Positions 8,240 through 63,005 of a stretch of DNA of 64,000 nucleotides are shown here, piece after piece (positions within the stretch are counted from its first letter, which is position 1; each line of letters opens with the position of its first letter). Source of the DNA: Cyanidioschyzon merolae (taxonomy: Eukaryota). The notes beneath the pieces were generated by a model, which was given only the letters and a program-made list of their open reading frames with translations, searched no databases and was not told where the DNA came from. Both the position numbers and the translations under genes were made by a program. The stretch lies in the NCBI GenBank assembly GCA_000091205.1, contig AP006498.2, one strand, 5' to 3'.

Positions 8240-8349
8240 ACTAGGTCACCTGCGCAATGTCGCACGAACACCGAACTCTTTTCAAAAGAAAAACGCTGTC
8301 GCCAACGGTGTACAGTAATAGCGGTGAACGCGTCCTAGAGAAGACGTCG

Positions 8350-12426: not shown

Positions 12427-13015
12427 TCACGAAGGAGAGAGGCAGCTCCCAGGATATATCTGAACAGCCATGTTTCTCCAGCGTGTCGTGCAGCGAATAC
12501 AAGCCTGCATCCGCAGACTGTCCGAGCACAAACTGACGATGAGACCGGATTCTACGTCGGGTGAACCATGCCTCGAGCCGACGCCCTCTGTGGTATGGAA
12601 AAGCAGTTCTAGCTCTATGAACTATCTGCTCCAGCATTTAAGGCGCAAAGGCGGATACGGAACGGCAGGTACGAGGCACACACGATAGGACGTATGAAAC
12701 GACCAGAATATCCGAGAAGAAGTACAGGTAAAGTAACTTGGAAGTAGGGGGTTTCATAAATACTTCACCGCGCACTGGAAAAAAAGTGAGAAAAGAAAAA
12801 GCGCTTGATCGGAGAACGCTGACCCAAGGAAACGTCTTCTCCATAGGAAAAAGAACCTGCACCACACAATGGGCGAGTCGAGCGCGTCCACGGTGCTGCT
12901 CGCCGCCGGAGCGCAAATGCCCCAGAGCGGCGATTCCCAGTTCACGTTCGCACACACTGCACCACACGACGTCGAAGGTGCGTAGCAGAGACTTCGAAAA
13001 GCGGGTTTTCTGCTC

Positions 13016-22458: not shown

Positions 22459-23987
22459 GCGTGTCTTCGAACAGGGTAGGCGCCGATGGAGGCGGGGCTG
22501 TTTCGGTTGCCGCCCCGTCAACACGTTCTTTCTTTGCATTCATCGTTCTGGCTTGGCAGCGGGACAGTCACAGGGACGGCACTTCTGGACAGCGTCTGGG
22601 AAGCTTGCCAGTTTTCGCATAGATGCTTCAAAGGACGTCTTTGGTGCGCGTATCGACGTGAGGCACTGGAATACAGGGCGCTTTTCAATCGACAAAGGTA
22701 TCGCCCTGGTCCAGCGCGCAAGCCACTCGCTGGTCCGTCGACGCTTATTCGGACACGAGTTCTGCTCAGATGAACACGGAATGCTGGCCTGCTCCTGCTT
22801 ATCGATTTTTTCTGAACTTTTTCTAGATGCACAGGCTCGATAATGAAAGTGCGGTTATAAGGGTTTACGAATTCGAACCAAGTTTTAGGACGGTTTATTG
22901 TGCTTTCGAGGTGACTGCGTTGACGCTCTGCCACCGGAATGCGTTGCGTCAGCGTAATCGAGATGATTCGCGACGCCGACGAACAAGGGTCTCGTTCCAT
23001 ATCCGATTCCATCATCCAGTTCTATCGTATGAGCCTCCACGCTTCTCCTTTTTTTACGTGTAGTGTGCTCGAATCACCCATGGTTTAACTTTCCGATCTT
23101 TCTTTTTCAAGGCAACTCGCAGGTACAGGACTTCATGCCGCTGGATTGACGAGGCGAAAAACGCGACCGCAACCTTTGACGGCTTGTCTATAAATTCATG
23201 CCGAAATTTCTCTGAACTTGTCATGTCAAACGGTAGATTCCATTCGAAAGTCGAATCCGCGTCTTGCTGAGGGCATCGAAAAAACCCGTATTCCACAGCA
23301 GCATGATACCTGTCAGAACCTATGCCCCCAGAAGCTAGGCTTTCTTCTTCCATGAAACGACGAGGTCCTGGACTCGGACCTGCGCTCTCGTAGCGATCGC
23401 TTCCGGCGGAAAACGCATCAGTGTTCTGCACAAACGCATTGTCTACGGATCGAGACTGCTCGATCTGTTCTTCAGCATCTATTTTCCTTACGGCACTTGT
23501 TTCAGAATGAAAAACATCCAGTTCCAAAAATCCTCTATTTCATGGAACAGCGCGCGTTTACTTGTGCAGTAGACAGAGTCTTCACCCAGTGAGTCGGCCA
23601 GAAAAAGCCCGTAATCGGTAGGTGCGGCAGCGGACGCGGAGACGGAGGAGAGTGTCGAGAAGGGCCCCTCTGTACACGTTGATGGCATTCACCGAGCGAC
23701 GGAGCAAGCCTTCACGCGCCGTGGGTGACGCTTCGAGGACAAGGTCTCCGGCGGACATCCCCGAACAACCAAACGGAGCCAAGTGCCACCGTAGCGACGG
23801 GCGTACCGTGGCTGCATGAATCGACAATGCAAATGGAAGCGAAGCTTCGTTCGCAGTGATACGCATCCGATGCATCGATTGAAGCGGAATCAGCGAATCT
23901 GGACTTGACGCTGCCACCAACATCCTTCGACTTCTAGTAACGGCGCTGGAGTTACAGGAGAGACTCTGGACCATTTAAAGCCGGGGG

Positions 23988-24953
23988 ATGAAGAGAACAA
24001 AAGGAAGCAATCTTCTGGTATTTCACCTCAGTTGTGCTCCATTCCCCGGGTGCGTGTCATCAAATGCTTTCTCGCAGTTGATACAAGGCGCGTGTGAAAA
24101 GCGTCCATTTTCAAAAACAGCTCGAAGGGAAAAGTATGGGCATGGAAGCCGGGCATCCTCGAGGCCCGGTGTCGCAGCCTGCCATGAAAAAAAACGAGAA
24201 AAATCCTCTTCTCGTCGACCTTCGAGCGAAGAAGAAGAAGAGAGTAGTGATCGGCGACAACAGGTGTTTGCCCGACAGGACGACGACGAGACCGTACTGG
24301 CACAGAGGGCAAGCGTTCGAGGACTCCCTGCAATGCTGAGTTCAACCAGCGCCAATGCATGCAAGACGTTCGTGAACCGAGACTTGAACGGCGCCAGCCA
24401 TTTCAGAAGATATGCGGTGCTGAATTCGAGACCTGAAGAGCTGAGGCTATCCAATTTTGTGGGGAAGCCTCTCAGGCTCGAAGCATGCCAGGAGGAACTG
24501 AAACCAATAACAAGCGGCCGATCGAAAAAAAGGCCCCGAGGCGCCATTGACTGTGTATTCGAGTACGCGCTCGAGCCGACGCCCTCACTGGTACCGCGAC
24601 GCCGTTCTGCGGTCGTGCAACGATCGCACCAGTGCTATAGACGCTATTGCGGACGCTCTGGACAGGCATTCGGCGCACGACAGAACCTACGAATCGGAAA
24701 GTATATCCGAGCACAAGTACGGTTCATGAAACTTGGAAGAGCTTCGAAAGAAGGGCGCGCTGATACCAAGCGCCGACTCGCAAAACCCAGACTTCAATGT
24801 CCATGTTTGTCCAGAAAAAAAATCAGCTGGCGGGCCGGCGCGCACGCAGCTGGGCGCGGGACGCAACGGGGCCGCAGGGCGTCACGGCAGCGGGTCATTG
24901 TTTTCGTGCATCGCTTGGTGCAATTGTTGTTGGTGTTGTTGTCCTGTTCGTAA
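23988..24953 (+). CDS. Hypothetical basic/Ser-rich protein (321 aa), no recognisable domain
   Basis: Longest ORF in an otherwise unassigned 1.5-kb gap. No motif support. Confidence 0.15.
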   Translation: MKRTKGSNLLVFHLSCAPFPGCVSSNAFSQLIQGACEKRPFSKTARREKYGHGSRASSRPGVAACHEKKREKSSSRRPSSEEEEESSDRRQQVFARQDDDETVLAQRASVRGLPAMLSSTSANACKTFVNRDLNGASHFRRYAVLNSRPEELRLSNFVGKPLRLEACQEELKPITSGRSKKRPRGAIDCVFEYALEPTPSLVPRRRSAVVQRSHQCYRRYCGRSGQAFGARQNLRIGKYIRAQVRFMKLGRASKEGRADTKRRLAKPRLQCPCLSRKKISWRAGAHAAGRGTQRGRRASRQRVIVFVHRLVQLLLVLLSCS

Positions 24954-27282: not shown

Positions 27283-28112
27283 TGAGCAGTGAATCTGGAT
27301 TAACAGGAGAAATGTATCCAGTTCATTGCAAACACGTCGCTGGACGACTTGGTGTTGACTCCGATAGCATAGGAGTACAAAGACCCGTCTCGCCAAAGTA
27401 AGCCGAGCCACGCTCAGCAGGTGGATGACGCACACGTCTCGTCATCCGCATCCAGTGCGCAGTGCATCCGAAACAAATGCCATCAAACTCCATCCGCACA
27501 CCTGTATCGTCGTCAATCCATTCCCCCCATTTTCCCCATTTCCGGAACAGACGACTAGTTCAGAACAGAGCAGACGCCGTGCTCGAATAAGAGCGATCCC
27601 GCCGCCACGAACATGTATTCCATGTGGTCTGCACGTATGGGGTCCGGTCCCATGACATCACTGTAGACACATGTGTATAGCACTATGCTGCGTCCGTCGT
27701 GCGCTACAACTGGCCTCTGCGAGCAGAGACCAGGCATTCGAACATCGTCGCGACGAGCATTTGCGAGGCTCATGCATGGCCTCTCGGCTCAGGGCAGACA
27801 GCGGAGACACGTTTACCGCCATGATGGAGACAGTCAGAATATCTGTGTGCATGCACTTTGTGTAACCGACGCCTGAGTCGAGCAATGAAACTCCTCTCCA
27901 ACCGTTCGAGGTGGATGACGAGCAAGTCTCGGTGGCGGGCGTGAATTCCGGTTTCATTGATATGGGCGCCGTCGCCGAGCTCATGAGGGGGTAGGGGACG
28001 GAGCCAGAGACCTCCAAGGCATGCAGCTGTAGCTGCTCAGTTCTGCCAGCGCACGGCAGTATCGGGAGTCGGGCATGATGGACACGAAGAGACATCCCGG
28101 GAGCTAGAATTC
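27283..28112 (+). repeat. Direct repeat copy 1 (~830 bp, ~98-99% identical to 39546-40423)
   Basis: Overlapping ORF translations are nearly identical between the two copies (e.g. MTHTSRHPHPVRSASETNAIKLHPHTCIV ... differing at 2 residues). Sequence identity read directly. Boundaries are near gagcagtgaatc (5') and cccgggagctagaat (3'). Confidence 0.85.
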
Positions 28113-33689: not shown

Positions 33690-33872
33690 AGTTGTTGTTT
33701 AGGGTACTCGCAACAAGTTTACGCGAACCCGTCTATGACTGGTGTCGCCGGAGAAGTAGTAGCAGCACAAATAGCAGCTGCACCTCACGGGAAAGAATGG
33801 TTCAAAAGGCGTTCGCAGCGCAGCGCAGCGCAGCGCTGATCGGAATCGACGGCGGCTGCGGCGCGATCACAC

Positions 33873-34060
33873 GATGCACATCGATGCGCTTTCCGATGCA
33901 CATCGATGCGCTTTCCGATGCACATCGTTGCGCTTTCCGATGCGCTTTCCGATGCGCTTTCCGATGCGCTTTCCGATGCGCTTTCCGATGCGCTTTCCGA
34001 TGCGCTTTCCGATGCACATCGTTGCGCTTTCCGATGCACATCGTTGCGCTTTCGCAGCAG
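33873..34060. repeat. Tandem minisatellite: 22-nt unit (gatgcacatcgatgcgctttcc) x3-4 interleaved with a 12-nt subunit (gatgcgctttcc) x7
   Basis: Read directly. It lies ~180-370 bp upstream of the FBPase start codon (minus strand) and downstream of the PRC1-like stop. Confidence 0.9.
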
Positions 34061-34488: not shown

Positions 34489-37400
34489 TTAGCGGATAGG
34501 CGACTCGGCACAAGGAAAGTCGGCTGAAAACTGAACAGGATAGGGCTCCCCAGACGCCGCAGGTGGCCTGGTGCTCGAATGTGTCGAGCCCGGCTGCTCC
34601 GAGAGCGAGTCTTCGGCGCAAGAATGCGCCCTCGTCGGGGCGTTCGAAGGCATCCCAGTCGTGCACTCCTGATTGTCGACGGCGGTACACTTCATTTTCG
34701 TGGTATTCGGTGTACAAGTTGACGCCGATGACGCCGATGACGCTGAGCGCACACGCTTTTTCGGCATGCAGTTCATCGTGAGATCGCTTTCTTGGAGCCG
34801 GGGCGAACCGCGGTCGCTAACACCCTTGATAGCTCGCGGGGTCTCGACCGGTCGGAACGACTGCTCGGCCGCGACATTCGCTTGCAAACTACTGTTTTCC
34901 TGGTCGGACTCAGGGTCTGAAGTTTGTACAGCTCGTTTTTTCTCTTGTGACAGACGCGAGGGTGTTTCGATATGCGACGCCCTACTCGTGGTATCAAGCG
35001 CGGGCGCGTTGTGCTCGTGCGTTTGCATTCCGGCTTCCATGAGCTGCTGCTGCTGCTGCTGCTGATGTTCCGTTCCTTGCGACTGCCTGCAAGGCGATAA
35101 CGTCGAGCCGGACACCGACGTGCCGGACGACAGACTCGGGTCCAAGAGCTTCGCCTCGGAGGCGCATCTTAACGACGGCGCGCTGCCTCCGCTGTGATGA
35201 CCATCGCTTTGGGACGAATGGAGTGACCCTATAAGCCGCGCTGAATTTCCAGTCGGGGTACTCCTGTATTCTACACCGACGAAGGACGGTGCTGCCGCAC
35301 TCGAACCGTACGAGTGCTCCGCGAGCTTTGCCCCTGCTCGCTCAGTGGGCGTGGTCTGTGCAGGGGAACGATCGAGCGTCCGTGTTGACCGCTCAGAGAC
35401 GCTTCCGCCCTGAACGCAACCGTGACTATTGGACGTACTCATTTCAGTGCCGCTGCTGGAAGACGCATTCTCGGTGAAGCAGCGGTCATTTTGGCCAGTG
35501 CTCTGGTTGGCGCACCCACCCGGAGGTCGGATTCCGGCGACTCCAGGACTCTGTGGCGAATCTGCTACCTTTGACGCAAACTGGGGCGTTCGCAAATCTC
35601 CAATCATAGGCGCTCTACAGGACATACTATAAGGTGCCGCTGAACCCTCACGAGCTATCGCATGGTGCTGGTTCGCAGGCCCCGCCGCTGAAAGCCAGGC
35701 ACACCATGCGCCCGGGACTTCGGCACTTGCAGCCGCCAGCGCAGTGGTGGTCTTCGCTTGTCCGATTACCGCGAAAGGAGTATTCGCATCGTGTTTCGAT
35801 TCCACGCGCTTGCGAACTTGGGCTGCGAGCACTTTCTTCGCACTCGTTCCATTCCATGTATTTGGTGCATTCGGCCTTGGGGTCGGGGTCGAACGAGCGC
35901 TCGTGGCGTTGCTCGGTGCAGCAAGCCGACCTGCGCTGCCGGCAGCAGAGGCCGCGTTCGCGGGGACCGTAGCAACCGGTACAAATGCTCCGCTGTTCGC
36001 GTTCGTGGGCGTTTCGCGTTGACCGCTGCGACTCACGCGCATGGCAGCCTCGGCTGCCTCTTCCTGTTGAAGGCGCTCCAAAATATCCACACCCTTATGT
36101 ATGAAACGTTTCTGGAATTCGTGCGCATAACTCTCCAGTAAACTGCGTAACACATTGTTCACTTTGGGTAGCTGACGCACCTGTTTTCGGAGCTGCTCCT
36201 CGCGGAGAAGGCCCCCTACGATGCGCTTACCGCCGCTGCGACCAAAGAGGCGCTCCGGATTCTGCATCTCTCGATCCAGCTCCATCTTCTTTTCGAGCAA
36301 TTCTTCGCGGCGCCTCAAAAGCTCGTGGATCGGACGAATACGCCTTGCAATGGACTCGAGACGCGATGTTTCCTGCTCTATGGCTTCGAGAACTTCCTCG
36401 CTCGCTTCATCGTTGCTGCAGAAAGCAAACGAGACCCGCTGCGCTGGTGCGATGTCAAGCTCATTCCACAGCGCGGTCAGGCGTTCTTTCTCCTTGGCAA
36501 TGAGAGCTCGAAGGCGCTTCTCGCGAGTCGCGCGCAATTCTTCCACATGGCTGTGCCATGCTTCCAAGCTGTGTTTGCTGAGAGTGCTGTGTTCCGCTTG
36601 GAATGCACTAAAGCGCTCCGCGGGATAACGTAGCGCCTTGTAGAGCTCAGCGGCGATATTGGATACTCGATCGAGCTCTTCGACCCGCAATTCAATTTCC
36701 CGCTCCAGATACGCTACCCGCGCGGTCAAAACATCAATGGAAACAAGAGAGGCACCCAGCGGCTCCTGCGTACCGTCAAAGGTCAGTGCAAGACGATCGA
36801 GTTCTGATTCAGTCTCTTCGGGTGACACTATGCAGAGTCTCCGAAGAAGACCTCTGATCGACACAAGTAGCGATGCAATCGTTTGCACTCGTTGCTGGCG
36901 CAGCTCTAACAGTTCCGAAATCTTCGACTCAAGCGCACGAATGCGCTGCCCATATTCGCGAATGGAAATCTTGCGAAGGGGATTGTTCAGGTCGGAGGCA
37001 ATCGTGGTAATCTGCGTAAAATTAGCCTCATGACTTGGGCTTACATTTGCCCCGAGTTCGACTGCGGACGGTACGTCGCGGGTGCGCCGACTCCCCGTGA
37101 TCACGAGTGCGTCCCGGTACTCCTCGGGCAAGTCATCAACGACTTCGCCGAGTTCATCAACCCAGAGCGTCAAAACACGTTTTTGCAGCTCACCGAGACG
37201 CTCGACAAAGAGTCGCTTCTGCGCTTCCAAAGCAGCGACTTGGCGTGAAACCTCGTCCAGACACTGTAGCAAAGTGCCCTGACGACCGGACGAGTCTCCA
37301 GAGCGACCGGATCGCTCATGCGGAGCGAGCCCAGGATTCGTGCTTGCACCAGGCAGTAGACGTTCCACAGTCGGCGCTTCACGCCGCAGAGAGGGCTCAT

Positions 37401-37830
37401 CCGGCAACGTACAACTCACGGACATGTCCGGTGCTGCAGTATGCCCCAAACCGCCGGCGCCAAAAGTCGTCGACAGCTCTATGGTATTATTGGCAGCAGA
37501 GGCGGCCCCCCATTGTCGCTCCGTCATGTCACCACCGACCGTACGCCGGCTACTGCTCAGCACATCAGCAGGCAACCATGCTGCAGGAGCGCTCTTTTGA
37601 GCAGCGGCGACCTCCGCCTGCAGCTCCAGCAGCAGTGCCTCAGCGGCGTCCAGTTCATTTTCGAGGGTATCCCGCTCATCCGCCGCACTTTCCAGCGTAT
37701 CCACGTATACACGAATCACCTGCTCGCGCAAAGCCTCCACCCGACGAACTCGTTCAGCTTCGTCGAGACCAATCTCCGCCCAAACTTCCTGTAAACGCGA
37801 TATAACATCTTGATTCAACCTGACCTCCAT
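34489..37830 (-). CDS. PRC1/MAP65/Ase1-like microtubule-bundling protein with ~700-aa low-complexity S/T/A/P/Q-rich C-terminal tail (poly-Q from a (CTG)8 tract at 35041-35064)
   Basis: The N-terminus VISRLQEVWAEIGLDEAERVRRVEALREQVIRVYVDTLE parallels the PRC1 N-terminal dimerisation helix (LREIWELIGIPEDQRLQRTEVVKKHIKELLDMMI). Long coiled-coil follows, then a disordered tail. The identity call is by memory only. Confidence 0.55.
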   Translation of the reverse strand: MEVRLNQDVISRLQEVWAEIGLDEAERVRRVEALREQVIRVYVDTLESAADERDTLENELDAAEALLLELQAEVAAAQKSAPAAWLPADVLSSSRRTVGGDMTERQWGAASAANNTIELSTTFGAGGLGHTAAPDMSVSCTLPDEPSLRREAPTVERLLPGASTNPGLAPHERSGRSGDSSGRQGTLLQCLDEVSRQVAALEAQKRLFVERLGELQKRVLTLWVDELGEVVDDLPEEYRDALVITGSRRTRDVPSAVELGANVSPSHEANFTQITTIASDLNNPLRKISIREYGQRIRALESKISELLELRQQRVQTIASLLVSIRGLLRRLCIVSPEETESELDRLALTFDGTQEPLGASLVSIDVLTARVAYLEREIELRVEELDRVSNIAAELYKALRYPAERFSAFQAEHSTLSKHSLEAWHSHVEELRATREKRLRALIAKEKERLTALWNELDIAPAQRVSFAFCSNDEASEEVLEAIEQETSRLESIARRIRPIHELLRRREELLEKKMELDREMQNPERLFGRSGGKRIVGGLLREEQLRKQVRQLPKVNNVLRSLLESYAHEFQKRFIHKGVDILERLQQEEAAEAAMRVSRSGQRETPTNANSGAFVPVATVPANAASAAGSAGRLAAPSNATSARSTPTPRPNAPNTWNGTSAKKVLAAQVRKRVESKHDANTPFAVIGQAKTTTALAAASAEVPGAWCAWLSAAGPANQHHAIAREGSAAPYSMSCRAPMIGDLRTPQFASKVADSPQSPGVAGIRPPGGCANQSTGQNDRCFTENASSSSGTEMSTSNSHGCVQGGSVSERSTRTLDRSPAQTTPTERAGAKLAEHSYGSSAAAPSFVGVEYRSTPTGNSARLIGSLHSSQSDGHHSGGSAPSLRCASEAKLLDPSLSSGTSVSGSTLSPCRQSQGTEHQQQQQQQLMEAGMQTHEHNAPALDTTSRASHIETPSRLSQEKKRAVQTSDPESDQENSSLQANVAAEQSFRPVETPRAIKGVSDRGSPRLQESDLTMNCMPKKRVRSASSASSASTCTPNTTKMKCTAVDNQECTTGMPSNAPTRAHSCAEDSLSEQPGSTHSSTRPPAASGEPYPVQFSADFPCAESPIR

Positions 37831-38139
37831 TCCTGGGGTTCCAGCCAGAGCGCTTGGTCACTTTTCACGACCGCGTGTGGGGACAGGTTCGACTCGAAGC
37901 AAACACCAGTTCCCTGTAGCGCCTTGCACGCTGTTGTCCGCTATTCGCAGAAAAGCGGCAACGCTCGCGAAGCGCAACGCAATACCGCACCGTGGCACAG
38001 CCAGACAGCAGCAGACACACCGGTAGGAGTGGCGGCACACCGGGCGTCGGGATCGCAACGGCTGGATGTGGCGAATCGGCGATTTGAATGAGGGCGGCTG
38101 TGTCGGGTACGGGCGCGCGCTGCTTGCGACGTGTCGCGC

Positions 38140-38310
38140 GATCGATTGATTCTCGATCGATGGACTGACGGATCGATGGACTGACTGACTGACTGACTGA
38201 CTGACTGACTGACTGACTGACTGATTCTCGATCGACGGACTGTCTGATCGATGGACTGTCTGATCGATGGACCGACTGACTGACTGACTGATTCTCGATC
38301 GATGGAGCGC
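38140..38310. repeat. Complex (GACT)n / tcgatcgatggactg(a/t)ctga repeat cluster
   Basis: (ctga)12 core plus flanking imperfect 20-nt repeats, ~300 bp upstream of the PRC1-like start. Confidence 0.9.
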
Positions 38311-39545
38311 ACAACGAGTCGCGAGTTGGACGCTTCTCTGCAGAGAGATACTGGCATCTGTTCGTGTTCGTGGATGCGATGAAGTCGGTGCTGTGTGGCG
38401 GAGTTGGCGTTCGTCTGGGCGCGTTGGTGCGTTTCTTTCGTTTCCGCGCATAGCGTAATGTCGTGCGGAACGGCTGAATCTGGGTATCCAGAGTATGCGA
38501 CTCGATTTTTTGACTTTTTCCCAGAGTCGATTGAAGAAACAGAGCACGTCTCTAACGATGATAGCGTCTGCAAGGCTGGCACCAACGACAGCCAGTTGCC
38601 TGCGAGGATCAGATCCTGGATGATACGCTGAGGTAAAGTTTAGTGTGATGGATTGAGTTTCCTGTACTCATACAGGATACAGATACGCGCAGTGAGCTCG
38701 AAACGAAGCGACATGGTCAGCGGCGGTGTCTGCGCCTTGGACGAGTTTATCGGCGCTCATGCACGTGAACGGCTCGTTGCATGGTTCGCTCCGCCCTCGT
38801 GCATAGCGTTGCGACCAGGTTCCGTCGAGCGCACACCGTACCCGTGTCGAAGAGGTATTCGCTGGGTCTCTGTGCAGCGAACTGGCAGAGTGATTGTGCA
38901 AGCTGTTCCAATGAAGGCTGGTCGTCTGCAGAGCGCCGCAACGAGGGCTGAAACGTTTTTCCGGTGGATATCTGTGTGAAAAAGATGATCAAATACGCAG
39001 CTTATGGAGGCGCATATTACCGAGTGCCATTCGGGTGCAGTCACGCATGTTTGGGCATGTATTGTGCACTCCAGTATCGCACCTATCTTGGACCGTTTAA
39101 GCGAGGTATTGCGGGCGGCGTCGGCTATCTTCCCAGCATACACGCGTACTGTGCAGCGCTTGCGAGGCGTAGGTCACCTGCTGACAGCGATGCACCATTT
39201 TGTGGCCAAGTACGCGTTGCTAGCCTTGCGCACAGCATACGGCGCCCGCACCGATATCGCTCACCCTAAAAACACAAGCTCCATTTGCCCGATCGCAGAA
39301 GCAACTTGACATCTCTGGGAATGGCGGCAAAAGAATGGACGCTCCCGTTGGGTACTGAGTGCCATGAGCATAGAAGTCATCTGCGATGCCGGGCGCGGAG
39401 CAAGACTCACCGTGCGCTAGCGTCTCAGGTGGACGTAGGTACAACGTCCGTTATCAATCGTAGCGTCTTGGAAGAGCAGCGTTCAAAACACTGCGCAGAG
39501 AATGCCATACAAGTCTAGCGCGGCGAAGGCGAAATCGATAGATGC

Positions 39546-40423
39546 AGAGCAGTGAATCCGGACTGCCTTTGTATGCATGCCCTTTTGTTTTCGCAGGTTT
39601 TCCTCGAAGTTTTTTCCTGAAGAAACGTATCCAGTTCATTGCAGAAACGTCGCTGGACGACTTGGTGTTGACTCCGATAGCATAGGAGTACAAAGACCCG
39701 TCTCGCCAAAGTAAGCCGAGCCACGCTCAGCAGGTGGATGACGCACACGTCTCGTCATCCGCATCCAGTGCGCAGTGCATCCGAAACAAATGCCATCAAA
39801 CTCCATCCGCACACCTGCATCGTCATCAATCCATTCCCCCCATTTTCCCCATTTCCGGAACAGACGACTAGTTCAGAACAGAGCAGACGCCGTGCTCGAA
39901 TAAGAGCGATCCCGCCGCCACAAACATGTATTCCATGTGGTCTGCACGTATGGGGTCCGGTCCCATGACATCACTGTAGACACATGTGTATAGCACTATG
40001 CTGCGTCCGTCGTGCGCTACAATTGGCCTCTGCGAGCAGAGACCAGGCATTCGAACATCGTCGCGACGAGCATTTGCGGGGCTCATGCATGGCCTCTCGG
40101 CTCAGGACAGACAGCGGAGACACGTTTACCGCCATGATGGAGACAGTCAGAATATCTGTGTGCATGCACTTTGTGTAACCGACGCCTGAGTCGAGCAATG
40201 AAACTCCTCTCCAACCGTTCGAGGTGGATGACGAGCAAGTCTCGGTGGCGGGCGTGAATTCCGGTTTCATTGATATGGGCGCCGTCGCCGAGCTCATGAG
40301 GGGGTAGGGGACGGAGCCAGAGACCTCCAAGGCATGCAGCTGTAGCTGCTCAGTTCTGCCAGCGCACGGCAGTATCGGGAGTCGGGCATGATGGACACGA
40401 AGAGACATCCCGGGAGCTAGAAT
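39546..40423 (+). repeat. Direct repeat copy 2 (partner of 27283-28112; carries a ~55-bp insertion near its 5' end)
   Basis: See copy 1. This copy ends ~65 bp before the first ORF of TnpB-like copy A. Confidence 0.85.
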
Positions 40424-40484
40424 GACGGCATCAGGACCGAACTCGACGCTTTAAGCTCCGGATCGAGCAGCGAAGGCAGACGCT

Positions 40485-41388
40485 TTGCGCGCTTCATTCG
40501 TAGTGTTCGTGAGCGTCCAAATGCATGATCCAGACCATCCTTGGGAGGAGTACATCAAAACGCGATGCGGCCTACATCGGTCTCGTCTGTACGCACACAT
40601 GAGGCGTGCATTCTCCAACTTGTTCATTGAGTCGCAAAAGCAAATGACCCGCAGGCCACTTGGTTCGGAAGCGGCCTAGTGTACTGGACGTGCTTCTGCT
40701 CGCAAAAGCTGCACTTCTGCCTCTTCGGCGAGAGCGTGCCACACGGGATATGTCCGCAGATGATCCCGTCACTTCTGTTTGCATGGCAAAGGGCATTGGA
40801 CTCGATCTTAAGTCATTGCAAAAAATCGCCTCCATTGGAGCCTGCGTCACCGTTTTGCGCGGAGGCTTCGCACAGAAATCAAAATTTCTCGACTTGTTCT
40901 ATAGCCTGGACTCTATCTGCTAATCGTTTCATCACGGGCATCATCCCGTTCTGCAAATCCTCTATCGAAGGGGAAAGCGTGCACTCGCTCATGTTACGGA
41001 AACCGTACTCGCCGAGCGAATCGCCCACAAGTCACCCGTGATCGTTATGTACAGCACCAGACACGGAAACGGAGCAGGGTATTGAGCAGAACCTTCTCTA
41101 CCCGTCAAAGAAAAGTACCAAGCTATGAAGCAAGCGTTCGCGCGCAGCAGGGGGGGCCTCTATACGGGCGCAGTGCTAGCCCTATGCGAACACCTGACAA
41201 ATGCCAAGTGTCACCGATGCCAAAGGCGTACCAGCGCTATTCTGGAAGAACATGAACATGGCAAGAGACGCGTAGCTCGCAACTGCCACCTTTACATGAA
41301 ATGTAGCGACAACGTTCAGAGGCGGCGAGCTCGGGAGTTTAAACCTGCCATCAACATCCCTCAACAAACGACGACAGAACCTGAGTAG
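40485..41388 (+). pseudogene. TnpB/Fanzor-like copy A: N-terminally truncated, degenerate, with a RuvC-I-like motif, a Cys/His finger and a mutated RuvC-III motif
   Basis: ORF 40660-40923 has AKGIGLDLKSLQKIASIG, a G-x-D RuvC-I-like motif. ORF 41125-41388 has KCHRC ... EEHEHGKRRVARNCHLYMKCSDNVQRRRAREFKPAINI. Its DNA and protein align with copy B (62.8-63.0 kb). The R-D of RuvC-III is replaced by R-E-F. Pieces are in different frames. Confidence 0.5.
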
Positions 41389-41490
41389 AAGTAGAGACTG
41401 GCGTATGTAAAACGGGAGATAAGAAAACAAAAAAATTAGCCGTCAGACTAAAAGCACGCAAAACTGGGGTTGATGATGGAGGAAGGAGAC

Positions 41491-43092
41491 CTAAGCTTCG
41501 GCGTGTGCACCTGTTTTGGAGGCCCAGCGACTTGCTCCATACGCTACTACGGGCCTTTGACGCTTGCACTCCTTCAAGGCGCTCAACTGACTGAAAAGAA
41601 TGTTGAATGTGCGCTGCTTCCCACAGTACAGGTTCATACGCTGGAAAGCCCACCGGGGCTTGGTATATTCTCTCCAGAGCGCCTCCCAATGAGCAACGCG
41701 AACTTTCATGAACTCCCGAAAAGCTCGATAGCCCGCTCCGCGGCACGTCATCTCGCTGGTCGCTTCCAGGTGATCCTTCACTCGTGCATTCCATGTCTGA
41801 ATTTTCTTCCTTGCACTCATGATGCCGGATTCTCGGTAGTATCTCGCCCTCGAGAGCTTGAAAAGACGAATGTCTTTATGAGGCAAATTACCGTCAGTAC
41901 CATCTTCCGCTCGCTTGGGTGCTGCGATGGCTATATGATTCGTGTTTCCAGGGTCTGTGCCAACGACAAAGCCGTTATCCTCCACCTCCTGCGTCACAGG
42001 ATCCTCCTCCTTCTCATCTTCATGGTTCGTCACGGGCGCAGCCGAGGGCGGAACTGGACGATCTGTCTTCAAGCGCCGATAGTGTACATACATGGTTACT
42101 CCATCGGTCTCAATCATCCCAGTGAATAACTTTTGCTTGCTCGTATTGAGACGTTTGAAATCGAAAATATTCTTCCAGTACGTCTCCCGGTTTTCGCCGG
42201 AGGATTCCTCCCTGCTAACATCGAACTCCGAACTGATCTCCTTCATGATGCACTAGAAGACCTTGGAGTCGATAGTCACAAAACGTGACTTGATGTTGCA
42301 CAACGGAACGACGTTGAAGCGCGTCCCCCATTAGGAAAGCCTTCCGTTTCTCCGAATCTTCGTTTTTTGTCCCACTAAGCTTCATCTCTGCCTTGCCTTC
42401 GAGTTCTCGATCCAAAAACACGAAATACCTCAATATGAGGAGGTAGTATCTTTCCTTATCTTTTTCAACTCTGATACCTTTTCTGCTGGATTCGCCAGCT
42501 CCAGTACCGTACGATGCTCTTGCATGACCGCACGGATTACAGAAGCTTCATTCGTGCTCTCGTTTGACGCCTTCTTGTCTACAAATTGGATCTCATCTTC
42601 ACGCTTGTGATCTTTCGTGATGCCATTGATTATCGCCCATATTCCTTTGCGAGAGGCACCCGGGTAGAGCGCAAACACGGCGCCTATCATGAAACGTTCG
42701 AGGTTCACGATCATATGTTTCTTCAGGTTCGTGAGGTACTTCATGGCCCCGTAGGTAAACATACCCCAGTATCCCATGTATCGAGTGCCGTTGAAGTGGT
42801 ATTCGGAGTGATTTTCGTGGAAGGCATGCACTAGCTCATTTTCCCTCCGCGCTTCCCCTTTACTAAGCATCAGGTGCCGAAGAATGGTCTTGTCGAAAAA
42901 ATCGCCCGGAACCTCGACTGTTTCCATGTCCGTCACGTCGAGATACATCTCCCTCGACATATGCATTAGCCCTGACGAAGCCTTTATAATACTCATGGAG
43001 TACGACTTAACACGGTTTCTAGTTGCCTCCCGTAACTTCTCCACCCACGCATTCTTGATATGTTTAAGAAGACAGGCTTTCACCACCGTCAC
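41491..43092 (-). pseudogene. TnpB/Fanzor-like copy C: N-terminal ~530 aa in three shifted frames, ending just before the expected RuvC-II/zinc-finger region, convergent with copy A
   Basis: It contains ...DNGFVVGTDPGNTNHIAIAAP (RuvC-I-like G-x-D-x-G ... N) followed by a basic helical region (KLSRARYYRESGIMSARKK ... LYCGKQRTFNILFSQL ... RPVVAYGASRW). That layout is typical of TnpB between RuvC-I and RuvC-II. The N-terminal part (ALYPGASRKGIWAIINGITKD) is homologous to copy B at 61.5 kb. GC is lower than in host genes. Confidence 0.5.
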
Positions 43093-44242
43093 GTAGGACT
43101 CTTGTTTTTCGTGCAGCTTCTGACGTGGGCTCTCCCTCTTCTGCGTCTTTGTCTTTTCCTGTTACTCTCCGCCGGGCACTGTTTTTCGTTTTTTTTCTGG
43201 CAGCCGGCGACACCTGCCTTCCAGGATCCTCCACTTGCTTTTCCAGAAATTTCCTTTTTTCGGAAAAGAACGCGCTTTGAACGCTTCTGTTATTAACTGC
43301 GAAAAATCAACCGAATACACTCATTAGAGCGTTGAAACACGACTGAGATGAAGTAATATATTTCGCTACGATTCCAATGCAAATACACGTTTTACGTTAA
43401 AACAACAAGTCAACGAATGGTCAGGATTGCGTTTCCCTTCAACGGCGAGATGCGCGTCGTACCTCATGCCTGCCGGTAATGGAGGTGCGCATCTCGACCG
43501 CACTATATGCAGCAAAGAACAGAGACTAGCTACTGACTAGCAATGAGATGACAATTTCATTCCCACTCTACAGTAAACGTTAAAAGGGCAAATGTTGCCA
43601 GATCGTCGAAAGCTTACCTTCCAGGCGAAAGGTCCAGCGAGCCGGACGAGTCTCCGGGGGTTCGTGCTTCATGGCTTCCCCTTCGCCACCCCAGTGCCAG
43701 GTGCTTTAGTGATATCTGACCAACTCATCCCCGAAGCGGTTTATTCCGGCATTAAGGGTGCTCAGGCAGCGTCTGGGCGTCGCCCGGCTTGCAGTTATCT
43801 CCTAGTATATCGCTTCGCGCTGCCGCAAACCGTATGTCTATCTGTACAAATTGCAGGCTCCCAGAAAGACAATTAGCCCCGATTCCGTATCACGTGTAGT
43901 ATTCCCCGAGCCGACGCCCCCGGTAGTGTGGTAAATATGTTCTGTTTCCGTGATACATCTGAACCATCGGTAGAGGGGCTATTCCGGGTGCTCACGGCCG
44001 GCAAGCGGCGCATGAGAGAACGAATGAAACGACCAGAACGTTCGAAAGCATGTATAAGTAATGGAACTTGGAGGTAGGGTGCAGCATGGCGGACGCTTCC
44101 CCGATTGCCAATTCCCATCTCGCAATCCGGGATCCATAGTCCGTGGAAACTTTTTGGCATCGAAATAGGAATCCGGCACGGGTCCAGAGGAGGCGCTTCC
44201 GCGGCACCAGCGCAGCGCAGCTGTCCCTTGGCAGGTACAAGA

Positions 44243-45190
44243 ATGACCGCGTTGTCCTTCTTCATGGAGACGCTGCGGTTAACCACGAAGGCTTTCAAGG
44301 TAGGAGCGCTGCTTGTACCGTCACGGAAGCATATTGCACACAGGAGTGACCTTTTTCGCCCGATTGGAGCGAAAGCTCGGTTTGCGACTCAGACGCACAG
44401 CGAAGCCGCCGGGGACTCTCCCGTCACCAAGGCTGCGTTCCTGGAGCGCTGCACTCTAGACCACGTGCCAACTCGAGGTTTCTCCCTGGAGGCACTGCAA
44501 GCAGCGGCCGAGGATGTCGGACTGTCGCCTGCATGGGTTGCTCGTTTCGATCGAGGCCCTGTGGAGCTCGTCGAATGGTGGCGTGAACACGAACTGCGAA
44601 CCGCGCGGGTCCTGCTCCTTGAAAAGGGTGACTGGCGGCTCGTCGATTCCACAGTAGCGGCGCTTGCTCGTGCTCCGTCAACACAGGTTCCGGAATATGC
44701 ATGGACGCGAGCCCGCCTGCTGTCCTTCCTTCAGACGATCTTTCGTCTCCGTGCGCCGTACAGGCGTTTCTGGCCACAGGCTCTCGCCTTGCAACTGCAA
44801 CCGAACAGCTGGAGTCAAGGGCTCGGGGTTCTCACGAAAGCCGTCGATGAGCTCGCCTGGTTCGCGGGCGATCGCTCTGCGGATATGCAATGGTACTGGC
44901 GGCGTGCTGCTGTTGCGTCGCTACTCCAGACAACGGAGCTTTACTGGATCGCTACCCTGCCAGACACAACGATGCTCGAACAAAATGCAACCTCAGACTC
45001 GTTTCAGGATTCGGAAACCTGGAATTTCGCGCAACGGCAGCTTGCTGATGACTCAGCTTTCATGACTGTCTGGTGGAGGCCAAACCAGAACCTTTCCAGT
45101 CGATCGCAGTCGGAGATTGTGGCGTTGCTTCGGATTTTAGGTCAAGGTGCGTCCGCTTGGGCTCGCGCCTGGTCAAAGGGATTCTCCTAG
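44243..45190 (+). CDS. COQ9: Ubiquinone biosynthesis protein COQ9 (ATG at 44243; the ORF is open upstream to 44105)
   Basis: The C-terminal block DMQWYWRRAAVASLLQTTELYWIATLPDTTMLEQNATSDSFQDSETWNFAQRQLADD matches the COQ9 domain (WYTRRAAL ... YTSTEL ... D.S.DF.DTW.FL.RR). Confidence 0.7.
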   Translation: MTALSFFMETLRLTTKAFKVGALLVPSRKHIAHRSDLFRPIGAKARFATQTHSEAAGDSPVTKAAFLERCTLDHVPTRGFSLEALQAAAEDVGLSPAWVARFDRGPVELVEWWREHELRTARVLLLEKGDWRLVDSTVAALARAPSTQVPEYAWTRARLLSFLQTIFRLRAPYRRFWPQALALQLQPNSWSQGLGVLTKAVDELAWFAGDRSADMQWYWRRAAVASLLQTTELYWIATLPDTTMLEQNATSDSFQDSETWNFAQRQLADDSAFMTVWWRPNQNLSSRSQSEIVALLRILGQGASAWARAWSKGFS

Positions 45191-54008: not shown

Positions 54009-54945
54009 GCACCACATTCGACTGCTTAGGTAAACAGGTTGAATGCCGCGAGCAGCGTGGCTTGTGGGCGCCTTTCGACGTACTTGAGCGAGCGTCGCAG
54101 GGGATCTCGATGCGACGCCTTGTTCAGTCTGCTGGACATCTGCGAGATACCGTGTCCGAGCAGTGCACCGGGCAGCATTGTCAACGGCGATGATGCTAAT
54201 CATCGTGACGCTGGTATACTGATTCATGTTGAATGATGGAATTACAATTTTGCGCACCAATCCCCAAGGGAAGCCGTTCCCGATGTACATGTAGGACACG
54301 CCAGCCGTTCCGGCATTGCTGGACCGTACCGTGCCAGTGCGCGGTCACGGGCGGGAATATGCGGTCGCGGCCTCGCTGCTGTCCACTGATTTCCTTGCTT
54401 CGGAAGTGGGCAGCGTTCCGGCACCATGCTCACAACGAGTGCTGAAGGATTTGCTCGAGACTTCGCTTGATATAAAGGCACCCGATGCCACAGGAGCACG
54501 ACTTAGATATGGATGCTTCTCGGGAGGTTCAAGTCGCAGTGCAGCATGTGCTTGCGCGCATTCTATCTGGTGAATGCACACCACAGCAAGCCTCTGATCT
54601 TCAATTGCATTGAAAGCTGACGTTCGATCCGCCTACGGTTCTCTACCTGGTGCATCCAGCTCTGCATCAAGCTCAACTTTTGTACCTGATTCAGCGCACA
54701 ACCGTGCTCGTGAAGCGTGCATGTCGTTCTCAACTCGTCGATGGGAATCGTACAGCGTCGACTCGTGCACTCGTTATACGCTCTCGTCGAAGGATGACGA
54801 GTGTAGCCTTTGCGCGCTGCAGCCTGTCCAGCACCATAGCTAACACCAAATGACGAAACGCATCGGCCGTTTCATTTTCCATCTCATTGAACAGGTACGG
54901 GAATGCACGCCTCGAGCCTGCATAGCACCGTAAGCATTAGTGGCC

Positions 54946-55401
54946 TCAGCGTGGTCTCATGTGCTCCCGACAAAGCTTTTCCGCATAAGCGCTTTGGATG
55001 CTCATACACGCACCGAATGAAACGTACGAATCATTGTCCTCTGCTCCATACATGACTGAGAGCGTCGAGATCGGGGTTCTGGTAACGTCGTCATTCCAGT
55101 TGATGATATACCTCGTCGTGATCATTGTGCTCGACTCACGAACATACCGAGCCAGGGAAAAGCTCATCAGATTCATCTGCTTTCCGTTCAGGCCTTTGGC
55201 CGCGTGCTCTTGACTTGGAGGTACGGCGACGTCTATGACGCCCTGGTACCACGAATTCATGCCCGGAATCAAGTCTTTCATTTCAGTTGCTTTTGGACAG
55301 TTGAAAATGCATCTCGTGGTTCGACTCGCTTCTTGGCTATACAATGTGCATTCAGATTGACATTTAGTCGTTCTCCATGGTCTCTGTATACCTCTTGTCA
55401 T
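54946..55401 (-). CDS. Hypothetical 151-aa protein in a lower-GC patch
   Basis: ORF only, no motif. Confidence 0.15.
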   Translation of the reverse strand: MTRGIQRPWRTTKCQSECTLYSQEASRTTRCIFNCPKATEMKDLIPGMNSWYQGVIDVAVPPSQEHAAKGLNGKQMNLMSFSLARYVRESSTMITTRYIINWNDDVTRTPISTLSVMYGAEDNDSYVSFGACMSIQSAYAEKLCREHMRPR

Positions 55402-56573
55402 GTCCTCCCCGTAAACGCGAATCCTTGACCGAGCTGCACCTGTGCCCTCCGCAAACTTTGATCAAATGCTTCATTGCTGTTGGAGGACATCGGCTCCTTT
55501 TCCCCATCTCCAATACCTGGTGGAGTCGCATAGATTTGGTCGCTATGCTGTATATTCGTTTTTGTCCTAGAGGTTCAGATGCACTGGGTAGACGGAAAGT
55601 GTGATCCACTGAGACGAATACTCATCTCGAATGTTCCCTGCGTTCGCAGTACACGACGACATCGACACTGTGCTGTTCATCGCGGAACAGGATCCGAATA
55701 AAGACTCGCAGTTTTCAGAGTCCCTTCATGCCTCCTGATCACCATTCGTACCAACGTTACGAAGACTTCACAAATCCTATCAATCTTTCGGCAGGATCGC
55801 ATGGTGAATGCAACGGGTGGAATCGATTGACCAGGGCCGAGTCATACCGAAAGAGCTTGATCAGTGCTTGTTTTCGGCGCATGACGTTCAGCGAAAGGAC
55901 CAGGAGGAGTGCGATTCGTCTACCACCTGCTGACCGAACTATGACTGACTTGTCGAAACAATGCCGTTTTTAGCGAACGAAAATTCACCGCATAAAGTCC
56001 TTCTGCGACCTTTCTCCCATTTACAGGATTTGTACCTCTAGTTGACTACTTTCGAGGAAAAAGAACGGAAACAATGAGGACGTGCTGCTACTGGTCCTCC
56101 GGGTTTCACCGATGATCATCGCGATGACTATGGTCAGTGAACCCCAGAGCTAGGCGCGGCATCGCTCCGTGATCATGCTCCGCCCTTCTATGAAACGCAG
56201 ATGCCAGTAGGTTTCGCGTCAACAGCATCAGAGTGCACAAGTCGCAAAGTGCTCCCGTTTCACTGCTTCACGCGACACGAAGCGGGTCCAGTGCGTGCTA
56301 CCCTAGCAAGTACTCGTGTTCTGCGAAACTCGAAACGCGTATCGGCGCTTTATCACCGAGACAAATCTTGAAAACAAGTACAGTGCTGTTATGTCGATCT
56401 CGTGCTCCCAGCGATAGCATCTTTGGAGCGATTTCGCGAAACAGTCACGTCGAGGAACTCGTATCCCCGACACTAGCGAAATACCCAGCGGAGCTTGCAT
56501 CTCGTTGGAAGCAGTGCACGGCAACTCCCCGCATGAGATGTCGAGATGAATGCATTGCGCACCATGAGATCGC

Positions 56574-59093: not shown

Positions 59094-60090
59094 CGTCCGG
59101 TAACGTGCAACAGAATACTTTCGAGAACAACCTCGTACGAAACGTTAAGAAGAGTGCCTGACGGTACCGCTGGTGGCTTGCTGCACTGCGGGATGTCGGG
59201 CGCCCCCGGCAACGCACATCCACTTCGGCCCGTGAGGCGCTTGTTCCACTCTTTCATCTCAATTGGGTTCCACAACCAGGTACATGGAACCAAATGATTT
59301 TTTCGCAGTTTATAGCAGACTTGTCGGAAGTGTTCTCATTGGAAGGAATAAAAAATCCAAGGGAAATGAATGGATGTGAAAGTCGACGGACGCACAGGGC
59401 CGTCATTGCCGGATTCACCAAGGGAAACGAAAAAAGACCTCTTCTTGCCGACCGTCGAGTGAAGAAGAGCAAGTGACAAAGAAGAAGGAGATATCCGAGA
59501 GCGCTTGTTTGCCCAACGAAATGGTGGCGAGATGTTAGTGACACAGAGGGTACGAGTTCTAGAAAGCCTTGCATTCATGAGTTCCACCAGAGGCAATGAA
59601 CGTAAAGAGTTCGTATACCTGGACTTTACGCCGCCATCAATACCAGACAGTGTACGGTGCTGAAGACGAGACCCGAGGAGCTGACGCGAGCAAACTTCAT
59701 GGGGCAGCCTCTGATGCTCGGAGTTTGTCCGATGAAACAGTAACCGATAGCAGGCGGCGGGCAGAACAAGGCAGGGAGGCGTCTTCGAATGGGCATAAAT
59801 GTAACCTCCATGGTTGTGAAAAAGCTTTTGTTTCGTCGACCACACTTGCTGCAAGCCAGAAGCGTTCCTTGTTTGAGAAAGCCTCGTGAGGTTTACCAAC
59901 GCATCCCACAAATAGCTTAGGAGACGGTGTGACTGCCCTGTTGCCCCCGCTCTGCAGACGTTTCTCTACTTGTGTAGGCACCGCGTGGAGAGTTACCTAG
60001 GACCGGCCAGTTTCAGCGGCGAATCCGCCTGGGATAAAGTCTCTGAAAACTGGTTGAACCGCTTGTGGACGCCACAAGGACACGAGGAAA

Positions 60091-60823: not shown

Positions 60824-63005
60824 GTGCTTGATTATCAAAAGAGGCACGCAACCCGAGCACACCAGGTATGCTGCGGAAACAAATGTGTACTGGTAAAAAA
60901 AGAAATACTGGAGCGTTTTGAACAGCCTAATGTATCGGTCTCAGAGAACGTCGCAACTCTCAGACGAAACGCATTCCTTCGTGAGGATCACCGCTGTTCT
61001 ACGACACTGTGGTCGTAAAGATATGCCTCAGTACTTTTTATTTCCCCTTACCGGAAAACGGAGTCCGCGCAGCAGGATATGCACTTGTCTCCTCGGAGCT
61101 CCAGCATCGAGCTTACCTCAAGCTCAAGACCGTGTGCTTCGCAAGCGTGTTTGAGCTTTTAAAAGTAAGGAACTTCACAGAGGCGCTGATGTGACGGATA
61201 CCCTTTTTGTTCTCACGCCAACCGGGCAGCTACTTGATACATGTTGTCCGGTCCGTGCAGTCATTCGTGGCGCAAGCGTTTCGGCTCCCTGGCTGAGCGA
61301 CCTTGCGGATGCCGAAGCCTTGACTCGTTTAATGACTCAAAGCGGACTGGATAACACAAAGGAGCACTCAGGAAAACATACGAACGGCGAATTTGGACAA
61401 CGTCAGCTTTCATCCCCGTACACGCGTACAGAATTCGATGTCCTAAAAGCGACAGGGCGACGACTCGGTCGCCAGCTGCACGGTATGAAGGCACTCTACA
61501 TGCCGGGCACTTCGTCGCAGCCCATTGGCTCGACCGATACAGAGAGCGTGATAAACCTCATTCGTGATTCCTCGACGACGAAGATGCCGAGAATAAGTTA
61601 GACATGATGGCTGCGAGGAGCATGCCCACGAAAGTGATGGCATTTCCGAATCTGGAAAGCTGCTCCAGAGTGCTTCAAAGGAAGAAATTCCTCGTTAACG
61701 AACGTATCCCTGCGCCGCCCGCACCAGCCGCTCGATTCGAGGTTTTTCTTTCGCTGGGCTGTGAAGGAAGTCGTCCTCGCAAAGGCGCTCTGATGACGCC
61801 CAGTAGAGAACAGGAGCGTCGAACAAGAAGCGCTGATCGACGGCATGGAATGCACGAAGCAAGCCATGCATTCTTCACCCGGAGATTCAGTGGAAATCAT
61901 GAACGGCTTTAGGATCGAAATGCAATGCAGTGCAATGAAAGGTGCGAATGGTGCGGAAAAACGAAGCAACGGGAGGTTCACATCACGGTGCGTGGATGCG
62001 TTCCCCTCCAGCGAGTCCGATAGGGTGGCGGTTTCCATCTCATCAAACGCAACATTCCTACGCGCTTCATGACCGCCTCGGAGCTTAAACGCATTCCCAC
62101 TCACCAGAGGCAACACATGTATGAACAACCAGCAACACGAGGACGCCGTCTCGGCAGCTCGATCTCCAATGCGATCTACATAGGTCTGGACGCAGACATA
62201 GCGAGCATCTACACCTGCGTTTCCGTGAGACCCGAAGAGCACCACAGTTCCCATGTGGTAACCGATAATGCGCCCAAACCAAGAGTTTTGGAACCCGCTG
62301 ACTTCCACCCACAGTCGCAAGTTCTACCCGCGCACCATTCATGTTCGTCTCCGTGGAAGCGGAGAAATCAGTGCATAATCCAATGAGCGACCAAAAGAGA
62401 ATTGAGTAGCACAAGCCGCAGGAGCATTGTCCCAGGCGGGCGGAACATGTGCACACGATGCCCATGAGTGATCCAGGAACCTCGATTACCGTAATGCTAA
62501 TCCGCACGTTTCGCGAGTCGCTCACACAGACGAAGAACAACTTGCATGGGGACAGATGTCGAATGATCGAATGGAACAACGAGCGCTTGTGTATGCAGCG
62601 GACAGCGTGCTCGCCGAAAGGATGACCAAGAAGAGCCGCATGATCGAGGTTTACGGTACTGAGCACAGAAACGGAGATGGAAATTGGGTTGAACCATCTC
62701 CACAGGTCACGGGCATGTACCGAACGATATAACAAGCGTTCACGTACCATAGGGCGAAGCTCGGAGAAGCCTGTGTGTTTGACCCATGCACACACACACA
62801 CACACACCCGTCCACATCCTGGTTTCATCGCTATGACGGGCGCATCGAGCCTGCATGCAAAGAACATGAAAATGGCGAGCGAAGCGTGGATCGCAGCTTT
62901 CACTTGTGCATGAATTGCGTTGCCAATGGCCAGAAGCTGCGAAATCGGGACTTGAACGCTGTCATCAACATCCTTCGACGGATAAAAACAAAACCAGAAC
63001 GATAG
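60824..63005 (+). pseudogene. TnpB/Fanzor-like copy B: most complete copy (~2.2 kb span) with an N-terminal region, RuvC-I-like motif, Cys/His finger and intact RuvC-III motif, fragmented over at least 5 frames and interrupted by a (CA)n tract at 62790-62812
   Basis: The end of ORF 62775-63005 is ACKEHENGERSVDRSFHLCMNCVANGQKLRNRDLNAVINILRR, i.e. C-x2-C followed by R-D-x-N-A-V-x-N-I, the TnpB RuvC-III signature. 62069-62386 has IYIGLDADIASIYTCV, which is RuvC-I-like. 61191-61601 has ALYMPGTSSQPIGSTDTESVINLIRD, homologous to the copy C N-terminus. Confidence 0.5.

Follow-up and report, generated by a model that had tools for sequence, protein, structure and literature searches.

Organization of the locus

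Positions 40014-44162 of the 64-kb window, i.e. the whole stretch of Cyanidioschyzon merolae 10D nuclear DNA that was analysed (contig AP006498.2), almost certainly hold the remains of three transposons, all of them inactive fragments, and form a small graveyard (Table 1). A sequence-only reading had described positions 40485-43092 as a convergent pair of degenerate genes for Fanzor proteins, the eukaryotic TnpB-like nucleases, and had proposed a mobile origin. Degenerate Fanzor genes of mobile-element origin as the content of the locus are supported by the identity of the minus-strand copy with the published repeat CMe-1A, by profile and fold matches to Fanzor1, and by the homology of the plus-strand sequences. 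The minus strand carries a 5′-complete, 3′-truncated copy of CMe-1A ("copy C"), a Fanzor1-encoding repeat without terminal inverted repeats (TIRs). The plus strand probably carries two older relics, both Fanzor1-like but from different lineages: A1 represents the middle part of one gene, and A2 the C-terminal part of a second, zinc-finger-bearing gene.

The plus-strand and minus-strand copies are convergent, and their 3′ ends are separated by ~80-100 bp, close to the ~100 bp noted before. The region is rich in repeats, and this tail-to-tail layout is most likely an accident of one insertion or deletion after another rather than a functional unit. None of the three copies has a full D/E/D catalytic triad: copy C has retained only the RuvC-I Asp, A1 has an Asn at this position, and A2 has two Glu residues at the two positions that it covers. 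In addition, stops or frameshifts break all three fragments. RNA-guided endonuclease activity is excluded for the copies at this locus because catalytic residues are missing.

The lower guanine-cytosine content that had been ascribed to both copies applies to copy C (0.50) and to A2 (0.51), but not to A1 (0.57), compared with values of 0.58-0.59 for the neighbouring genes. A search for a host transposon bounded by TIRs had been suggested as well. In a repeat search of 39500-44400, neither TIRs nor direct repeats nor target-site duplications were convincingly found near the elements; the inverted pairs in this region are short, imperfect and at chance level, and none is located at an element end. 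The absence of TIRs is a property of the family.

Copy C is a truncated CMe-1A element

CMe-1A has been described in C. merolae by Bao and Jurka (2013, Mobile DNA 4:12, PMC3627910) and has a Repbase entry. The consensus has 3169 bp, and about 150 copies are ~80% identical to it; TIRs are absent, and target-site duplications were undetermined. The element encodes the 734-aa protein CMe-1, which is listed as Fanzor1, and some of the copies are still ORF-intact (open reading frame, ORF). Its 5′ 635 bp are common with the non-autonomous element TE-N2_CMe (all from PMC3627910).

The blastn comparison of copy C with the published consensus (PMC3627910, supplementary file 2) yielded 83.1% identity over 2661 columns. 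Consensus position 1 aligns at 44162, so that copy C begins at the true 5′ end of the element, ~1.07 kb further upstream than the start at 43092 given by the sequence-only reading. The first ~635 bp of the non-coding part correspond to the part in common with TE-N2_CMe, a relationship taken from PMC3627910. At the other end the last 528 bp of the consensus (2642-3169) are absent, and with them RuvC-II, RuvC-III, the stop codon and the 3′ terminus. The fragment terminates with ...VVAYGASRW (41524-41550, codon 578), ahead of RuvC-II (VDEFRTS). A frameshifted gene that stops just before RuvC-II, as read from the letters, is thus what the alignment shows.

The coding part has 85.7% nucleotide identity and, after frame correction, 75% amino acid identity to the consensus. 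The ATG is lost, and there are three 1-bp frameshifts (~43198, +1; ~42466, -1; ~42323, +1) as well as two in-frame stops (within 43153-43173, codon 28; within 42244-42264, codon 331). The RuvC-I assignment of VVGTDPGNTNHIAIAAP proved to be right: in the family alignment this peptide falls on the invariant column GxDPG, it also aligns to GvDPGR of the Fanzor1 protein of Parasitella parasitica (PpFz1), and the RuvC-I Asp is kept (VVGTDPG). Two ORFs in the same frame, of 220 aa (42430-43092) and 251 aa (41491-42246), are joined by a 72-aa ORF in another frame. With the joined ORFs 152 relatives were found (best E value 1e-184), nearly all in environmental assemblies of JGI, ENA and Logan, and many of them tagged PF26935 (DUF8286). 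Copy C is a dead CMe-1A fragment and does not belong to the ORF-intact copies of the 2013 paper.

The 5′ end of the element at 44162 is only 81 bp away from the first ATG (44243) of a divergent COQ9 ORF, and therefore the transposon end sits in the would-be COQ9 promoter region.

The family belongs to Fanzor1

Three results weigh against a Fanzor assignment. Searches of Pfam-A and NCBIfam with all ORFs of the locus gave no significant match, Pfam searches with the intact relatives likewise gave none, and a single-sequence phmmer search of the PDB with the intact relative P0104 returned low-complexity noise only. The evidence for the assignment therefore comes from a profile, from the fold and from the literature. 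Of the models that had been proposed for a check, Pfam PF01385 and PF07282 gave no significant match; a profile of the family itself matched solved Fanzor1 proteins.

A family profile was built from 28 diverse relatives of the CMe-1 clade. In this alignment the Asp of GxDPG and the Glu of VDEFRTS are invariant, and the Arg-Asp of NRDxNAAxNI is nearly so. The profile matches PpFz (9cf0) at an E value of 9.1e-14 in two stretches, one comprising RuvC-I and the other RuvC-II and RuvC-III, and Guillardia theta Fanzor1 at an E value of 0.012. Full-length relatives, e.g. P0001 (752 aa) and P0104 (676 aa), run on past the end point of copy C with ...VVAYGAGR...VDEFRTS...VRGLL...NRDFNAAINI. The D/E/D triad is thus present in the intact relatives, in GxDPG, VDEFRTS and NRDxNAAINI, respectively.

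The fold was analysed on the intact relative P0121, not on the truncated locus copy, with a model predicted by AlphaFold2 (predicted local distance difference test, pLDDT, 84; predicted template modelling score, pTM, 0.75). The best Foldseek matches of this model in the PDB are the Fanzor1 structures SpuFz (1e-11), PpFz (6.5e-10) and GtFz (6.8e-8), followed by Cas12 variants, Fanzor2 and ISDra2 TnpB. A RuvC fold, for which a structure prediction had been recommended, was found in this model. Fanzor1 membership of the copy C family is supported by the profile, the predicted fold of an intact relative and the literature; a Fanzor profile match and a RuvC fold exist, and the similarity extends well beyond a few residues. 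The opposite view, that the resemblance to TnpB and Fanzor is a chance match of motifs in unrelated ORFs, could draw on the missing Pfam and NCBIfam matches and on a misplaced RuvC-I motif on the plus strand (see below), and its probability is negligible in view of the E value of 1e-184 to a protein family, a Fanzor1 element in the literature with 83% identical DNA, and the solved Fanzor1 structures that were matched both by profile and by fold.

The alignment of the CMe-1/DUF8286 clade does not show the canonical C4 zinc finger that lies between RuvC-II and RuvC-III, and only one conserved Cys remains (in VRGLLWC). The clade may thus have lost the finger, as far as the alignment can tell.

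Intact Fanzor1 proteins, as Saito et al. reportedly described in 2023, are omega-RNA-guided RuvC endonucleases carried by transposons, and the solved complexes 8GKH and 9CEY reflect this mechanism. By analogy, the intact relatives of copy C would be expected to act as omega-RNA-guided RuvC DNA endonucleases. For Fanzor and TnpB, the 3′ end of the element is where the guide (omega) RNA is normally encoded; this part (consensus 2642-3169) is missing in copy C. A search of Rfam over 39000-45000 at E ≤ 1 gave no match.

Two probable older relics on the plus strand

The plus-strand copy had been read as one gene starting at 40485. We favour two separate relics, the first of which, A1, begins ~470 bp earlier. 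A1 covers profile positions ~10-238 of 339 and is interrupted by two frameshifts and by stops. The hidden Markov model (HMM) of the family recovered 40017-40643 (profile 11-206) in three frame segments with i-E values down to 1.4e-11. The RuvC-I remnant is VAGVNSGFID (40245-40274, plus strand), in which the Asp is replaced by Asn. An N-terminal domain, RuvC-II and RuvC-III are lacking, and no remnant of the N-terminal domain was found upstream of A1 with the full-length family HMM. By tblastx A1 (40028-40743) is collinear with two other old relics, 55457-54772 and 16816-16173, both on the minus strand.

Longer versions of these A1-type relics (54494-55457 and 15711-16816, both minus strand) extend from RuvC-I to RuvC-III and are frameshifted, have HMM i-E values down to 7e-20, and are nearer to the Logan-derived P0104 than to CMe-1. 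The 5′ part of A1 is included in an 803-bp segmental duplication. Its other copy (27308-28110) is 98.9% identical and gives the same HMM matches (27704-28098), and the duplication is far younger than the relic itself.

The second relic, A2, represents the C-terminal two thirds of a gene of a zinc-finger-bearing lineage, "family 2", in a single frame with two in-frame stops. It is collinear by tblastx with the plus-strand relics 4917-5531, 23384-23965 and 62566-63047. A family-2 profile was generated from the four aligned conceptual translations (A2 and the 5-, 23- and 62-kb relics). Comparison with the CMe-1 family profile using hhalign gave a probability of 95.9% and an E value of 5.3e-9. The family-2 paralogues retain the C4 finger CxxC...CxxC, and A2 has kept three of the four Cys residues. 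In the 62-kb paralogue the corresponding sequence is still CMNC...RNRDLNAVINI (NRDLNAVINI at 62943-62972); DNA positions 41246-41365 in A2 are 73% identical to 62860-62979. The proposal that the Cys/His finger and AREFKPAINI form the zinc-finger/RuvC-III part is thereby substantiated, in a degenerate form with Asp replaced by Glu and one Cys lost. The sequence SFHLCMNCVANGQKLRNRDLNAVINI has also been preserved in the 62-kb paralogue, into which a CA-type microsatellite encoding THTHTH has been inserted.

All peptides that the sequence-only reading had quoted (VVGTDPGNTNHIAIAAP, AKGIGLDLKS, CHRC and AREFKPAINI) are present in the sequence. The interpretation of AKGIGLDLKS as RuvC-I did not hold. 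This peptide lies ~51 residues before the LYGGKKR-type motif, whereas RuvC-I lies ~100 residues before it, and for this reason it is not RuvC-I; it matches the profile region "kgikeeleaLstvsskga" of the helical insert. An alternative placement, in which 40780-40920 was aligned to the RuvC-II/RGLL/RuvC-III part of the gene of A1, was also rejected, because the region is collinear with its family-2 paralogues and the LY..KR motif follows in the same frame.

Instead of two relics, the plus strand could hold a single degenerate Fanzor gene with an internal duplication or insertion of ~300-400 bp, or with introns. Both parts are on the same strand, adjacent and in the correct N-to-C order, and a possible RuvC-I-like stretch of the 5-kb paralogue, VFVAIEETGFDTS, resembles VAGVNSGFID of A1 (by eye only). 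We consider a single gene improbable, as A1 and A2 overlap in profile coordinates (A1 to ~238, A2 from ~128-190), have different paralogue sets (the 16- and 55-kb relics versus the 5-, 23- and 62-kb relics) and differ in guanine-cytosine content; furthermore, C. merolae has very few introns. Several points also weigh against the division into A1 and A2. The HMM score of A2 itself is insignificant (1.5 bits), the similarities that suggest the division are weak and degenerate, and for A2 only the profile-profile comparison supports its placement. On balance we retain two relics of different lineages. A PDB profile search with family 2 returned noise only, and in an index of 5.8 billion proteins no intact family-2 relative was found, only the same 87-aa ORF from a metagenome (P0213).

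Neutral-looking decay of copy C

Since two sizeable ORFs are still open in copy C, expression of a fragment is possible from the sequence, and this speaks against a purely inactive locus. The 220-aa and 251-aa ORFs, with their DUF8286-type N-terminal region, could thus constitute a truncated gene that is domesticated or still expressed and serves a function other than that of a nuclease. Pfam has an entry for this family (DUF8286), and the arrangement is conserved in an environmental relative in which gene callers predicted proteins: a JGI hot-spring metagenome contig of 2687 bp (L001) is 98.8% identical to 43097..40411 without gaps, and therefore carries the same frameshifts and the same arrangement of A and C.

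We regard such a domesticated gene as very unlikely. The frameshifts, the stops and the lost ATG are common to the window copy and the environmental variant, and the 32 differences between the two are mostly non-synonymous in the surviving ORFs (5 versus 3; 6 versus 1), an excess that would be expected for neutral DNA. The differences between copy C and the consensus are evenly spread over the codon positions (84/66/98), and of the changed codons 63 are synonymous and 143 non-synonymous; the substitution pattern is neutral-looking. Neutral DNA of close strains would be expected to show an identity of 98.8% as well, and this identity extends through the non-coding spacer. Moreover, the exact ORF is absent from the protein collection as a C. 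merolae gene.

Further Fanzor1 debris and environmental relatives

The window contains additional CMe-1A fragments (Table 1), and by our estimate roughly 10 kb of the 64 kb are Fanzor1 debris from three lineages, i.e. CMe-1A, the type of A1 and the 16- and 55-kb relics, and the zinc-finger-bearing family 2. The fragment at 8280-8660 (minus strand) is an isolated 3′-terminal piece of CMe-1A (consensus 2785-3165, 86% identity). With the coding part for RuvC-III and a terminal GC-rich hairpin plus T-run, it is a plausible place to seek an omega RNA. In two further plus-strand fragments (24018-24482 and 59252-59784) consensus ~790-970 is directly followed by ~2840-3080, at ~70% identity, and this layout suggests an internally deleted, possibly non-autonomous derivative family.

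The locus as a lead to an intact family member proved to be valid. P0001 is an ORF-open CMe-1A copy with an intact D/E/D triad in a related environmental genome (hot-spring metagenome contig L002, 4001-6259); the existence of intact copies is not new, as it was reported in the 2013 paper. Just before RuvC-I, P0001 has three tandem repeats of ~25 aa (…KHEE.K.A.PATQEV.DND..VD…), of which the window copy has one unit. Window positions 11606-12863, which include the TE-N2_CMe-like piece 12556-12748, are 87% identical to 2393-3671 of L002. The P0001 copy directly follows in L002, whereas the window has no such copy at the equivalent position, a presence/absence difference between the relatives.

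The neighbouring ORFs encode typical eukaryotic proteins, including MAP65/ASE1, ADA2, COQ9, RibBA and an ABC1 kinase. Self-comparison revealed short tandem duplications with ~90-bp units of 82-86% identity at 33872-34053, just downstream of the MAP65 ORF (34489-37830, minus strand), and at 38144-38306, within the ORF 37858-38547 (minus strand).

Table 1 Features of the locus and of the window (positions of the window)
Feature	Position	Strand	Basis or remark
803-bp segmental duplication copy, including 5′ part of A1	39621-40423	+	self-blastn
Relic A1, middle part of older divergent Fanzor1-like gene	40014-40743	+	HMM and tblastx
Relic A2, C-terminal two thirds of probable zinc-finger Fanzor1-like family-2 gene	~40780-41433	+	tblastx, hhalign
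AKGIGLDLKS, helical insert	40786-40815	+	position versus LY..KR motif
ILYRRGKRA, pairs with RLYGGKKR	40957-40983	+	hhalign
SPVIVMYS, pairs with VVAYGA	41032-41055	+	hhalign
LALCEHLTNAK, RuvC-II position, Glu kept	41176-41208	+	ALCEHLT pairs with VDEFRTS, hhalign
CHRC, zinc-finger remnant	41209-41220	+	family-2 alignment
NCHLYMKC, zinc-finger remnant	41281-41304	+	family-2 alignment
AREFKPAINI, RuvC-III position, Asp to Glu	41329-41358	+	pairs with NRDLNAAINI, hhalign
A-rich spacer between facing 3′ ends, 76 bp	41434..41509		similarity to neither family detected
CMe-1A Fanzor1 element copy (copy C)	41510..44162	-	consensus 1-2641 of 3169
Degenerate coding region for CMe-1 (Fanzor1), codons 1-578 of 734	41510..43257	-	consensus alignment
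RuvC-I motif of copy C, VVGTDPGNTNHIAIAAP, catalytic Asp kept	41917-41967	-	family alignment
5′ non-coding part of CMe-1A copy, consensus 1-905	43258..44162	-	80.6% identity to consensus
Further CMe-1A fragments	2529-2872, 8280-8660, 12556-12748, 24018-24737, 59252-59784		consensus comparison
V-ATPase B ORF	19317-20795	-	exact match to XP_005537801.1/BAM81765.1 (C. merolae 10D)

Implications

The finding is already known, because the 2013 paper on the C. merolae genome covered the family and its assignment to Fanzor1 as well as how abundant and how decayed it is there; beyond that paper no relevant later literature on Fanzor or TnpB in C. merolae was found. Only the A1-type and family-2 relic lineages and the apparent lack of the C4 finger in the CMe-1 clade are possibly undescribed. 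For annotation, the stretch should be masked as CMe-1A plus older Fanzor1 relics, with no gene calls, and the locus is of little importance beyond that. As to method, a sequence-only reading can spot Fanzor pseudogenes, and its motif-level calls can be misplaced, as for the RuvC-I of the plus-strand copy.

Tentatively, and with rather more doubt than confidence, we consider that the window, from a very compact red-algal genome, holds at least three Fanzor1 lineages, versus one in the 2013 survey, and that intact CMe-1 members, which appear to lack the zinc finger, may still be active nucleases. If both were true, this would be a Fanzor1 variant of an unusual kind, able to function at high temperature and with no canonical zinc finger. 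ORF-intact members, e.g. P0001, might be nucleases of thermoacidophilic algae that are guided by an omega RNA. The dense Fanzor1 debris together with the ORF-intact environmental CMe-1 copies makes the Cyanidiales a reasonable group in which to search for thermostable Fanzor1 enzymes, a lead that already follows from the 2013 paper.

Comparison with known systems

Copy C shares with the published CMe-1A family the typical divergence from the consensus (83% versus ~80% reported), the 5′ end, the CMe-1 protein and the absence of TIRs. It differs from a complete element with an intact 734-aa ORF in that it is 528 bp short, contains frameshifts and stops and has no ATG.

The solved Fanzor1 structures SpuFz (8GKH/9CEY), PpFz (9CF0) and GtFz (9CER) have the split RuvC domain (D/E/D), the overall fold and the long helical insert after RuvC-I in common with the CMe-1 clade. 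The Foldseek E values range from 1e-11 to 7e-8, yet the sequence identity is only 14-19%. In contrast to the solved proteins, the CMe-1 clade appears to have no C4 zinc finger between RuvC-II and RuvC-III, and for its N-terminal half (DUF8286) no sequence similarity to these proteins could be detected. We know of no omega RNA for the CMe-1 clade, unlike for the solved Fanzor1.

The prokaryotic TnpB proteins (IS200/IS605, IS607) and the type V Cas12 proteins belong to the same RuvC superfamily and have a distant fold similarity, with Foldseek E values versus the P0121 model of 7e-4 for TnpB (8H1J) and of 1e-5 to 1e-2 for several Cas12 proteins. Family 2 keeps the TnpB-type motif [TS][TS]xxCxxC...CxxC...RD, and one family-2 relic matches the TnpB family PF07282 at an E value of 0.089, although no match reaches the Pfam threshold. 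The locus differs from the TnpB systems by its eukaryotic host, the absence of TnpA and of insertion sequence (IS) ends, and a much longer N-terminal region.

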